Source: a virus. From it: a DNA stretch of 64,000 bases. A model generated the notes under the pieces. The model was not told where the DNA came from. It worked only from the letters and a program-made list of their open reading frames with translations, and made no database searches. Location of the stretch: IMG/VR virus record IMGVR_UViG_3300021141_000706; one strand, 5' to 3'. The translations under genes were made by a program, and so were the position numbers. Shown here in pieces: positions 23 to 56,057 of the stretch (the first letter of the stretch is position 1; each line of letters starts with the position of its first letter).

Positions 23-1360
23 ATGAAATTATTTAGATATACAGAATTTATAAAGGAAAGCCTTTCTCAAAATACTATTCCAACATATGAACAAGCATTA
101 GAACTTTGTTCTGTTGAGGAAGCGCCATTTTATGAATCTAAGATGGTTGTGGATGGATTTAATGTATCTGTATTCAACTATCGTCTTGCTCAATACAAAG
201 ACTTTGCTTATCCAATTCCAGATAAGCCAGATTTAAAAGGTTATGAAATGAGAGGTTTAACTTTTGTTTTCAATGAAGATGGTTCATTATATAATAGATA
301 TGTACTACTTGAAAAGTTCTTTAACTTGAATCAAGTACCGGAATCTTTATACTCAGTTGTTAAGAACTATAAAATCAAATTTGTGAATAATAAAGAAGAT
401 GGTTCTATTGCTTCTTTTGTTAAGTTACCAAACGGTAAGATTGTTGGTAAATCTAAAATGGGATTTGATAACGACCAAGCTGATGGTATTAACAGAGTTT
501 ATAAAACTAACAAAGAAGTTAAATCTTTAGTTGATTGGGCTTTGAATAATAATATCGTGCCAATTTTTGAATATGTGGCACCAAACAATCGTATTGTTTT
601 AAGATATCCAAGCGAAGAATTAATCTTATTAAGATTAAGAGATAATGTTACTGGTAAACACATTGATATTAGAGACCACTTAGATAAAGTAGGTTCTATT
701 AGAGTTGCGCCATTTGAAGATGATGTAAGAGACTTAGATCACTTAGTTGAGCTAACTGCTACTCAAGTAGATAAAGAAGGCTCTATTGTTACTTGTGAAG
801 ATGAACACGGTAGAGATTTCTTCTTTAAGTTGAAGACTCCTTGGTATTGTGAACGTCACGGTTTACTTACTCAAGACTTATATAGAGAACATATTATTAT
901 TGGTTATATCTTAGATGATAAGATAGATGATATCTTAGGTCAGATACCAGAAGATGAAAAAGAAGCACATATTAGAATTAATAAAATAATTACTATTGTC
1001 AAAAAATCAATTTCTGATAAAGTGTCAGAAATTGAAAGAGTTTACGAACAATTTGTCAAATCTGGAATTTCTAAAAAAGATTATGCCATAAATCAAAGAA
1101 AAGGTAATCCTAACTTTGGTTTTGTAATGAATATGGTTAAAGCCGATGATTTGAAAAAGATGTCTAAAGAAGAAATTCTTGATATCTATGATAATATGGA
1201 AGACTATGAAAAAGCATTACAAAGATGTGAGCCATATGAAATGGCTAAAGGTTGGTTAAGAGATTTAACTAAGAGATTGAATTTATCAAGAGAATGGTTA
1301 CAAACAAAAGATAAAACTTTATTTTTTCAAGATCCAGAAGAAAGTGAAGATGATAATTAA
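23..1360 (+). CDS. RNA ligase, T4 Rnl1-like, with N-terminal tag
   Basis: EMRGLTF, KFFNLNQ, KEDGS (motif I), FEYVAPNNRIV, EG...KLKT motifs. Confidence 0.9.
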   Translation: MKLFRYTEFIKESLSQNTIPTYEQALELCSVEEAPFYESKMVVDGFNVSVFNYRLAQYKDFAYPIPDKPDLKGYEMRGLTFVFNEDGSLYNRYVLLEKFFNLNQVPESLYSVVKNYKIKFVNNKEDGSIASFVKLPNGKIVGKSKMGFDNDQADGINRVYKTNKEVKSLVDWALNNNIVPIFEYVAPNNRIVLRYPSEELILLRLRDNVTGKHIDIRDHLDKVGSIRVAPFEDDVRDLDHLVELTATQVDKEGSIVTCEDEHGRDFFFKLKTPWYCERHGLLTQDLYREHIIIGYILDDKIDDILGQIPEDEKEAHIRINKIITIVKKSISDKVSEIERVYEQFVKSGISKKDYAINQRKGNPNFGFVMNMVKADDLKKMSKEEILDIYDNMEDYEKALQRCEPYEMAKGWLRDLTKRLNLSREWLQTKDKTLFFQDPEESEDDN

Positions 1361-28828: not shown

Positions 28829-29293
28829 ATGGTGTCTTTGAATAAAGAATATAATCAAATTGTGAACCTTACTAAATTCAATGTGAATTTTAGTAAGTTT
28901 ATTCATAATAATGACTTATTGAGTCATAGTCCAGACTATATTCTTGAAAAATATAATCATTGGATTGGATTTGAACCAACTATTGAGTGTAAATTATATA
29001 CACCAGATGATATGACTGATTTTTTTCTTAAATATTGGAAAAGATGGGGTATATTTGAAGAATATTCTGTGAAAAATATTTTGATGTATCTTTACTCAAC
29101 TAGAAGTATGAATCTAGTATTAATGTCTGAGAAGTTTGAAGAGTATATCGGGCCAATGAATATGATATCAGATATACCAGATAAAAAAGGATTACATCAT
29201 AAATCAGATTTATTTATTAATGATGTATTAGAAAAGAATAAAGACAATGTAAAAGTTGTTTTAAGAGATATGAAAATTGGAAGTATAATATAA
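28829..29293 (+). CDS. hypothetical protein with C-terminal tag
   Basis: TATATTTG at 28817-24; ends LRDMKIGSII. Confidence 0.7.
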   Translation: MVSLNKEYNQIVNLTKFNVNFSKFIHNNDLLSHSPDYILEKYNHWIGFEPTIECKLYTPDDMTDFFLKYWKRWGIFEEYSVKNILMYLYSTRSMNLVLMSEKFEEYIGPMNMISDIPDKKGLHHKSDLFINDVLEKNKDNVKVVLRDMKIGSII

Positions 29294-29526
29294 GTCAGAG
29301 AAGCTATCGCTGGTAGAAATACTAGAGAAACTTCGACACTACAGAACCTAACACGGGAGAATAAGTAAAGAAATTGAAAGTTCGTTTGTACCGAGGAAGT
29401 AGCAACACATACAGACTTAGGGTATCGGTTCCCCTTTGATGGTCGGGTTGTGGCAGTCCTTCGGGACCACTGAAAGGTGAGATAAATGATAGCTTAAAGC
29501 AAAATGTCGGGTACGCTCAACTTATA
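29289..29526 (+). ncRNA. rnpB: minimal, divergent RNase P RNA
   Basis: P1 TATAAGT/ACTTATA; P2 AAGCTATC/GATAGCTT; P3 CTGGTA-gaaa-TACTAG; P4 TCGACA/TGTCGG with bulged U; P5 CTACA/TGTGG; GTCC-ttcg-GGAC; CACT-gaaa-GGTG followed by AGATAAATGA. Confidence 0.82.
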
Positions 29527-29571
29527 TAACTTTCAATTATAAAATAGTAACAAATAAAAAATAAAATAAAT

Positions 29572-30036
29572 ATGAAAATGATTAAATTCTTGATGTTGGC
29601 TCTTGTAGCAACAATGTTCTTAACTTCTTGTACTGAGAACTATTCTAATGGTGAACGTATTGGTATGATTACCAAATTCTCACAAAAAGGTCTTGTTTGG
29701 AACTCTTGGGAAGGCTCATTAAACACAACACAAACTGGTATGAATAGTGCCACTCCGTTTGAGTTCTCTGTTGATAATGATGTAAATGATGCTAAAGTTA
29801 TCTCTACTTTAGATTCAGCGGCTACCGAAGGATGGAAAGTTAAAATTAAATATCATGAAACATTCGGTAAGAACTGGCTTTCTAATAGAGGTGAAACTAA
29901 TTACTTTGTTAAAGAAGTAGAAGTTTTAGATAGAGACCCAATGGGTAGCGTATTTGGTAACTCAAATAATACAGGTGGTAAAGTTGTTGACACAATCTAT
30001 GTGGTAATCGTTCCAAAAGAAAAAGTAATTAAATAA
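29572..30036 (+). CDS. lipoprotein
   Basis: Lipobox FLTSC; YSNGERIG..TKFSQKG..WEG. Confidence 0.8.
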   Translation: MKMIKFLMLALVATMFLTSCTENYSNGERIGMITKFSQKGLVWNSWEGSLNTTQTGMNSATPFEFSVDNDVNDAKVISTLDSAATEGWKVKIKYHETFGKNWLSNRGETNYFVKEVEVLDRDPMGSVFGNSNNTGGKVVDTIYVVIVPKEKVIK

Positions 30037-55440: not shown

Positions 55441-55525
55441 GGTCGGGTGGTGGAATAGGTAGACACGAGGGACTTAAAATCCCTTGCCCCTAAAGGGCGT
55501 GCGGGTTCGATTCCCGCCTCGACTA
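55441..55525 (+). tRNA. tRNA-Leu(TAA), CCA not encoded
   Basis: GGTCGGG/CTCGACT acceptor; AGGGA-CTTAAAA-TCCCT; long variable arm; GTTCGATTC. Confidence 0.95.
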
Positions 55526-55533
55526 CAAATATT

Positions 55534-55607
55534 GGTTGCGTAGCTCAGCTGGATAGAGCAACTCACTTCTAATGAGTAGGTCACAGGTTCGAATCCTGTC
55601 GCGATCA
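55534..55607 (+). tRNA. tRNA-Arg(TCT), CCA not encoded
   Basis: GGTTGCG/CGCGATC; ACTCA-CTTCTAA-TGAGT; GTTCGAATC. Confidence 0.95.
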
Positions 55608-55620
55608 CAAATCAAATAAA

Positions 55621-55878
55621 ATGAGAACATCAATACTATCAGTGGCTGCTTTAGGAATTCTATCAATTGGTTTTATGTTTGGTTCAGTTGTATCAAACGG
55701 TAAACGTGAGAAGATAGAACAGTCTTATCAAAGTAAAATTGACTCACTAGGTCTTATAATTGAAGATAAAGACTGGCAAATTGAAGAATTAGAAAAAGAA
55801 ATCTCTTTTAGAGAATCAGAAATTAGCTACTGGGGTCAAAAGTACGATTCGCTTCGATTCGAAGAAAATTGGCCCTAA
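55621..55878 (+). CDS. membrane-anchored coiled-coil protein
   Basis: N-terminal hydrophobic helix. Confidence 0.65.
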   Translation: MRTSILSVAALGILSIGFMFGSVVSNGKREKIEQSYQSKIDSLGLIIEDKDWQIEELEKEISFRESEISYWGQKYDSLRFEENWP

Positions 55879-55960
55879 TAAAGTAGCCCTTGGGCCTCGT
55901 TAAGCCTCTTACCCTAGTGGTAACGTAACGAGTGGGAGTAGGGTAACACCGACGCCTCCC
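55871..55960 (+). ncRNA. unidentified structured GC-rich element (possible pseudoknot)
   Basis: CTCGTTA/TAACGAG crossing TTACCCTA/TAGGGTAA; GGGAG/CTCCC. Confidence 0.35.
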
Positions 55961-55966
55961 AAATTT

Positions 55967-56040
55967 GGTCCTGTAGCTCAGTTGGTTAGAGCAACTGACT
56001 CATAATCAGTAGGTCCACGGTTCGAGCCCGTGCGGGACCA
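55967..56040 (+). tRNA. tRNA with CAT anticodon, probably Ile2 (reads AUA after lysidine modification); CCA not encoded
   Basis: GGTCCTG/CGGGACC with C4-G69 and C5-G68; ACTGA-CTCATAA-TCAGT; no initiator features. Confidence 0.9.
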
Positions 56041-56057
56041 CTAAAAAAGAAAAGAAT

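Follow-up and report, generated by a model that had tools for sequence, protein, structure and literature searches.

A 64,000-nt stretch of viral DNA, referred to here as the window, carries an RNA gene between two plus-strand open reading frames of its ORF list (28829..29293 and 29572..30036). The gene coincides with a local maximum of GC content, 43.5% against ~28% in the surroundings. The upstream frame encodes 154 amino acids and has no match in Pfam or PHROG. Phage-type topoisomerase II genes are also present in the window, as are three tRNA genes, while ARAGORN detected no tmRNA, and a tmRNA identity was rejected on that ground. The assigned features are given below, where position 1 of the RNA numbering is window position 29287.

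29288..29527, plus strand: whole RNA gene (putative miniature RNase P RNA, subtype A), ~240 nt, matched by the family covariance model R1
29288-29300 with 29516-29527, plus strand: P1 (RNA 2-9/234-241 and 12-14/230-232), 8 bp, a small internal loop and 3 bp
29303-29308 GCUAUC with 29488-29493 GAUAGC, plus strand: P2 (RNA 17-22/202-207), from covariation
29310..29325, plus strand: P3 hairpin with GAAA loop (RNA 24-29/34-39), 100% paired
29325..29339, plus strand: CR-I and 5' strand of P4, GAGAAACUUCGACAC, bulged U at 29333 (or 29332)
RNA 44-46 and 48-52 with 219-226, plus strand: P4, a pseudoknot of 8 pairs with U47 bulged
29339-29342 CUAC with 29399-29402 GUAG, then CAA (J5/15), plus strand: P5 (RNA 53-56/113-116), from comparison with E. 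coli
29344-29348 GAACC with 29427-29431 GGUUC in the P17 loop, plus strand: P6 pseudoknot (RNA 58-62/141-145), from covariation
29352-29356 with 29391-29395, plus strand: P7-like helix of 5 bp (RNA 66-70/105-109) enclosing one hairpin
29359-29362 with 29380-29383, plus strand: base of the S-domain remnant hairpin (RNA 73-76/94-97), within 29352..29395
29406-29409 with 29449-29452, plus strand: P15 (RNA 120-123/163-166), both sides changed in 1 of 4 pairs
29414-29417 with 29441-29444, plus strand: P16 (RNA 128-131/155-158), both sides changed in 3 of 4 pairs
29419-29435, plus strand: P17 hairpin (RNA 133-136/146-149), both sides changed in 2 of 4 pairs
29445..29448, plus strand: J16/15, GGGU, 3' side of the P15/P16 internal loop
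29456..29479, plus strand: two perfectly paired hairpins, GUCC-UUCG-GGAC and CACU-GAAA-GGUG, a subtype-specific insert at the P18 position
29480..29487, plus strand: CR-IV (J18/2), AGAUAAAU; relatives carry AGAUAAAU, AGAUAGAU or AGACAAAU
29499..29513, plus strand: CR-V (J2/4 and 3' strand of P4), GCAAAAUGUCGGGUA, from comparison with E. coli 347-361
55441..56041, plus strand: three tRNA genes (Leu-UAA, Arg-UCU, Met-CAU) that do not encode CCA

Folded as a single sequence, the RNA does no better than its shuffles (z = 0.29), and the case therefore depends on comparison with relatives. These were gathered by sensitive blastn against deposited phages and by scanning IMG/VR and JGI/ENA metagenomes for exact patterns; loci that the 16-17-nt patterns hit by chance (L002-L005, L008-L012, L014-L017, L019, L037 and L041) were discarded by eye. 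The blastn search returned one homologue, 73% identical and intergenic in LR745206, an uncultured phage of 634,780 bp. This 634-kb genome belongs to the Mahaphage clade, whose predicted hosts are Bacteroidetes (PMC7162821). Copies in IMG/VR sit on viral contigs of 29 to 483 kb and the names of the metagenome contigs include marine assemblies. Altogether the homologues stem from phage genomes of 380-640 kb and from lake or marine metagenomes. Alignment A3 holds 24 distinct full-length sequences, and R1 was built from it. R1 matches the window at 29287-29528 with 254 bits and retrieved a far more diverged full-length copy (81.9 bits) from LR756502, a phage of 642,428 bp, the addition of which gave the 25-sequence alignment A4. 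Short hairpins elsewhere in the window match the P1 of R1 only (E 0.14-6).

The window is collinear with four related huge-phage genomes at 65-92% nucleotide identity and the RNA occupies the same site in each; the genomes with this syntenic site measure 385-635 kb. There is one copy per large phage record and likewise one in the window, where nhmmer found no second. The 476-kb record G001 (IMGVR_UViG_3300032236_002285) is classed as 'provirus' in IMG/VR, yet phage genomes that were published as complete are collinear with it. We suspect that its many cell-like translation genes misled the classifier.

Analysis of A4 showed that the helix model is 98.1% paired, against 32-39% in controls in which the 3' partners were slid by 1-3 columns. 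Both sides have changed in 36 of the 61 pairs, compared with 1-3 pairs in the slid controls, and the observed values were reached in none of 500 shuffles. The same picture came from an independent MAFFT alignment made before LR756502 was added. A4 was fitted to the nested helices of R1, from which P4 and P6 are absent, and the counts for these two helices are for that reason unbiased by the model. P4 is 99.5% paired with both sides changed in four of its eight pairs; its forms are CGACA/UGUCG, CGCGA/UCGCG, CACGA/UCGUG and, in LR756502, CAAC/GUUG, and G.U intermediates were seen. The GAACC/GGUUC form of P6 in 24 sequences says little because the search pattern fixed its 5' strand. In LR756502 the same helix reads CUUCU/AGAAG, with both sides changed in 4/5 pairs, and P6 is 100% paired overall. 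P5 of LR756502 (CACC/GGUG) likewise has two pairs changed on both sides. Among the nested helices, double changes were found in 8/11 pairs of P1 (98.5% paired), 3/6 pairs of P2 (GC/CG, CG/AU and UA/CG; 99.3% paired) and 4/5 pairs of the P7-like helix, where an A.A mismatch persists in subtypes A and B. A first-pass annotation of the window had placed a structured RNA at 29289-29526 and named covariation of P2 and P4 among related phages as a check. Both are borne out, as the element is intergenic, GC-enriched, conserved and covarying, in P2 and P4 as well.

RNase P RNA is among the few ribozymes found throughout cellular life, and few known RNA sequences are as conserved as its P4 core. We compared the phage RNA with a bacterial type-A molecule, the M1 RNA of E. 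coli (rnpB, L049:344-720), and found the same helix order, P1-P2-P3-P4-P5-P6 ... P15-P16-P17 ... J18/2-P2'-J2/4-P4'-P1'. Both pseudoknots, P4 and P6, and the regions CR-I, CR-IV and CR-V stand in RNase P order and register. CR-I of E. coli (61-75, GAGGAAAGUCCGGGC) corresponds in an equal 15-nt register to GAGGAAGUUCGCGAC in phage subtype B and to GAGAAACUUCGACAC in the window, and CR-V (347-361, ACAGAACCCGGCUUA) corresponds at equal length to ACAGAAUCGCGGCUA and GCAAAAUGUCGGGUA. J18/2 reads AGAUGAAU in E. coli (328-335) and AGAUAAAU in the phage. The 3' strand of P5 with J5/15 is GGAG-CAA in the former and GUAG-CAA in the latter, so that GCAA matches, and in both molecules the strand after P5 pairs with the P17 loop to form P6. 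P4 has the same geometry of three pairs, a bulged U and five pairs, whereas 5/8 of the phage P4 pairs differ from E. coli. The two pairs just 5' of the bulged U deviate from the bacterial consensus, and in the window CR-V begins with G in place of A. With the exception of this first A, the phage RNA retains the positions of CR-I, CR-IV and CR-V that we take to be universal (GNAANNUC; AGNNNNAU; ACNNNANNNNGNNUA). The strings quoted in the first-pass annotation are exact (GAGAAACUUCGACAC at 29325-29339, GCAAAAUGUCGGGUA at 29499-29513 and AGAUAAAUGA at 29480-29489), and its proposal that P4 has been rewritten, with pairing and bulged U kept by compensatory changes, is supported by the covariation in the homologues.

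The 3' side of the P15/P16 loop is GGGUA in E. coli (291-295) and GGGU in the phage. GGGU is invariant in 24 homologues and replaced by GAGGU in LR756502. This motif is the counterpart of G291-G292-G293-U294 of E. coli, where the tRNA 3' CCA binds, and presumably has the same function. As GGU is retained, the RNA can in principle pair with a CCA added post-transcriptionally. The placement of P15 and P16 at 29406..29452 agrees with the Rfam RNaseP_arch alignment. Here the earlier reading has to be corrected. It had described the topology of RNase P, of which P1-P5, the P4 pseudoknot, the P7-like helix and J18/2 stand, but had assigned P15 to a bare UUCG hairpin lacking GGU. The true P15-P16-P17 lies upstream at 29406-29452 and contains GGGU. 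The UUCG hairpin (29456-29467) belongs with a GAAA hairpin (29468-29479) to an optional insert at the P18 site, between the 3' strand of P15 and J18/2. This insert is restricted to the window's subtype, in the window itself, L006, L031 and the first copy of L039; its four copies are identical, and it consequently offers no covariation. The other 21 homologues run from GGCA directly to AGAUA, and most phage members are without P18, unlike E. coli. With GGGU in the real P15/P16 loop, the argument that a missing GGU fits CCA-less tRNAs falls, although the tRNA genes do lack an encoded CCA.

Between the P5 strands there are 56 nt in the phage compared with 164 in E. coli, so P8-P14 are gone; CR-II/III are absent too. 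In place of a specificity domain (P7-P14, CR-II/III) we found a P7-like helix and one hairpin only. The RNA keeps the whole type-A catalytic domain, and the specificity domain has shrunk to this short helix and hairpin. The phage RNAs span ~213-242 nt and the E. coli RNA 377. At ~215-240 nt they are, to our knowledge, smaller than any bacterial RNase P RNA. The description of a phage-encoded, strongly reduced RNase P RNA homologue is supported.

Existing covariance models recover little of this, as had been anticipated. Rfam gave no RNase P match in the window, neither at gathering nor at E <= 10, and only a chance snoRNA match. RF00010 had no match at E <= 10 either in the window, where its gathering score of 100 bits was not reached, or in five related phage records; as a control, the same model matched 11 of 14 control genomes, eight above the cut-off. 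On LR745206, Rfam returned only a chance IMES-5 match. The Infernal comparison with RNase P models that had been suggested as a check was thus negative for the window, but two relatives match RF00373 (RNaseP_arch, gathering 84 bits) over the whole model, 1-288: L013 with 20 bits (E 4.5e-4) and LR756502 with 32.4 bits (E 6.4e-8), both far below gathering. These are the only significant Rfam matches of the two relatives, and ~117 S-domain model positions are deleted in the alignment. L007 reached 6.8 bits (E 6.3). With scores below gathering, the RNA falls outside the existing family models by Rfam's criterion. In the reciprocal search R1 missed E. coli rnpB both under default filters and with filtering turned off, which is weak evidence because R1 is narrow (effective sequence number 1.05). 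On the combined evidence of structure, motifs and model matches, we regard the RNA as an RNase P RNA homologue.

The homologues fall into three subtypes. Subtype A, to which the window belongs, combines P2 GCUAUC/GAUAGC with the non-canonical P4. Subtype B, elsewhere near-identical to A, combines P2 CCUAUC/GAUAGG with a P4 closer to the canonical one. Subtype C (LR745206 and the 483-kb record G002) shares the P2/P4 flavour of the window and differs in P3, where an additional hairpin is inserted, and in the S-domain remnant. P2 and P4 swap jointly, as a block, between the flavours; the number of independent events behind this switch is therefore small, and further compensatory changes occur within each flavour. 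Copies of subtype A show compensatory differences among themselves in P16 and P17. The P2/P4 flavour of the window is also that of LR745206 and G002, two complete genomes that both bear rnpA, and it is neither a private oddity nor the mark of a decaying copy.

Both flavours meet on one metagenome contig of 1145 nt (L039:53-722, minus strand), where a subtype A copy and a subtype B copy of the RNA lie 451 nt apart. An identical ORF end (...VLRDMKIGSII*) stands before both; of the two ORFs, the second encodes a 64-aa protein that has only this C-terminus in common with the 154-aa upstream ORF. The pair is either a tandem duplication or a recombination between phage variants, or a chimeric assembly. 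The last ~50 nt of the upstream ORF (window 29243-29293) are near-identical DNA across subtype A and B loci despite differing downstream genes, which are of three kinds (lipoprotein-like MKMIKFLM..., MAIKKGDKL... and MEQKLKDY...). This conserved ORF end may hold promoter or processing signals for the RNA. A sigma-70-like TTAAGA-17-TATAAT lies at 29261-29289, and its start would fall inside P1; we set it aside because such sites are no commoner than in shuffles. No terminator was found for the RNA gene.

A search for the protein subunit gave PF00825 matches above the curated Pfam cut-off in three of the four large records searched, G001 (476 kb), G002 (483 kb) and LR745206. The phage RnpA has ~100 aa, aligns to a solved RNase P protein and carries KRAVDRNRIKRLM (KRAVDRNRIKR motif), with RNR intact. 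By tblastn a 52%-identical homologue was found in LR756502, a fifth genome that also has the RNA. Metagenomes contain at least 140 related RnpA protein clusters (90% identity), some on contigs of 268-642 kb, and JGI labels several of them ribonuclease P protein component. No rnpA was found in G003 and G004, which are linear and possibly incomplete records, nor in the window. The absence from the window had been noted in the first-pass annotation, along with the idea that the RNA may borrow the host protein. This second part is not supported: collinear relatives (65-92% nucleotide identity) encode a Pfam-valid RnpA, and a phage protein partner is therefore more likely than the host's. The possibility that the related genomes carry a canonical RNase P RNA at another locus was rejected, because RF00010 finds none in the five phage records; the RNA described here is thus the sole candidate found to partner the phage RnpA. 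RNA and rnpA are 85 kb apart in G001.

Bacterial rnpA typically has rpmH and yidC as neighbours. These are missing beside rnpA in G001 and G002 (L047 and L048), where it adjoins a gene with a product that by eye resembles ClpP protease.

The three tRNAs of the window are likely substrates of the predicted enzyme. The RNA gene itself stands apart from any tRNA array. Among the relatives, G001 has 59 tRNA matches, LR745206 has 61 and G003 has 41, whereas G002 and G004 have only 4-6 and keep the RNA, so tRNA load alone fails to explain its retention. The spread among these related huge phages, all of them RNA-bearing, is about ten-fold (4-6 vs 41-61). Directly upstream of tRNA-Met, the AT-rich genome of the window has a GC-rich segment of ~95 nt (55872-55966). 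It has no Rfam match and folds no better than shuffles (z = -0.67), and it may be a long structured leader.

We think it likely that the stretch encodes the catalytic RNA subunit of an RNase P specified by the phage, and three other explanations were weighed against this. The RNA might be a structured phage RNA with no relation to RNase P and only a fortuitous resemblance to it, as the lack of an Rfam match in the window and the negative reciprocal search of E. coli rnpB with R1 would allow. Such a coincidence is very improbable, since it would have to produce two pseudoknots and three conserved regions in correct order and register, matches of two relatives to the entire RF00373 model (E 4.5e-4 and 6.4e-8) and co-occurrence with rnpA. 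An active RNase P with main substrates other than phage pre-tRNAs, such as mRNAs (of the phage or the host) or other structured RNAs, or one that replaces a host RNase P shut down by the phage, is conceivable with G002 (483 kb) and G004 in mind, which keep the RNA at 4-6 tRNA matches, G002 with rnpA as well. The specificity domain reads the tRNA elbow; an enzyme that has lost it could not do so and should be relaxed in its choice of substrate. We consider this quite unlikely, as nothing indicates another substrate, three relatives have 41-61 tRNA matches and the GGU for the CCA end is invariant.

A true homologue might also have ceased to cleave pre-tRNA and serve instead as a decoy or regulator that, for instance, ties up host RnpA or binds pre-tRNAs, a role that was proposed for the orthopoxvirus RNase P-like RNA; the camelpox version of that RNA was inactive on pre-tRNA in vitro (PMC3001073). 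The departure of P4 and of the first CR-V base from the bacterial consensus, the missing S-domain, the lack of an Rfam match in the window and the retention of the RNA by relatives with few tRNA genes would all suit this role. On the other hand, the bulged U, the P4 geometry, the J5/15 adenosines, GGU, CR-IV and CR-V are all conserved or covarying, and the phages keep an RnpA with an intact RNR motif, for which a decoy aimed at the host protein would have no use. A loss of activity therefore appears unlikely to us.

Under the preferred reading of a phage-encoded RNase P, the RNA would assemble with the phage's own RnpA, the GGU of its P15/P16 loop would pair with the tRNA 3' CCA, and the holoenzyme would cut the 5' leaders off phage pre-tRNAs during infection. 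Judged from the genomes, phages of this lineage, which includes two of the largest published phage genomes (634 and 642 kb), probably bring a complete tRNA-processing enzyme of RNA and RnpA. Only tentatively would we go further. It is possible, and to our mind doubtful, that the clade's self-sufficient RNase P, with its own RnpA and an S-domain-less RNA of ~215-240 nt, takes over tRNA 5' maturation, that the P2/P4 flavours show the near-invariant bacterial P4 to be dispensable for catalysis, and that they might evade something targeting the canonical P4.

Our search of the searchable literature turned up no description of an RNase P RNA encoded by a phage. RNase P is unmentioned in the main text and the first 200 of the 257 supplementary files of the paper that describes the genomes (PMC7162821). 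What is new is a known ribozyme family in a new type of host, where the S-domain has been lost naturally, P4 is re-coded and the lineage encodes the protein subunit as well. If both subunits are encoded, with an RNA that lacks the specificity domain and tolerates a re-coded P4, the known translation-related toolkit of huge phages would extend to tRNA 5' maturation. Structure-function work would then gain a minimal RNase P of bacterial type that occurs naturally, and such genes, being missed by covariance models, would probably be under-annotated in viral data.

Among known systems, type-A RNase P RNA has an RnpA-type protein partner, and so does the phage lineage. The type-T RNA of Thermoproteaceae (Pyrobaculum; RF02357; PMC3579882) is likewise a natural RNA that has kept the catalytic domain and lost most of the specificity domain, but it is archaeal, works with archaeal proteins and represents a separate lineage. 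The cmscan tables, which list no member of the RNase P clan but the best-scoring one, here RF00373, contain no type-T match. The isolated C-domain of the E. coli RNA (Eco CP RPR) also resembles the phage RNA in being a catalytic domain without an S-domain, and it reportedly cleaves its substrates less efficiently (PMC5839562). With the type-T RNA it sets a precedent for catalysis in RNAs that have no S-domain. That molecule is a laboratory construct, whereas the phage RNA is natural, has a short P7-like helix with a hairpin and differs in its P4 sequence. The orthopoxvirus RNA (PMC3001073) is, like the phage RNA, virus-encoded and RNase P-like in secondary structure. It belongs to a eukaryotic virus and has no virus-encoded protein partner, whereas the phage RNA has far fuller core motifs and a lineage that encodes rnpA.
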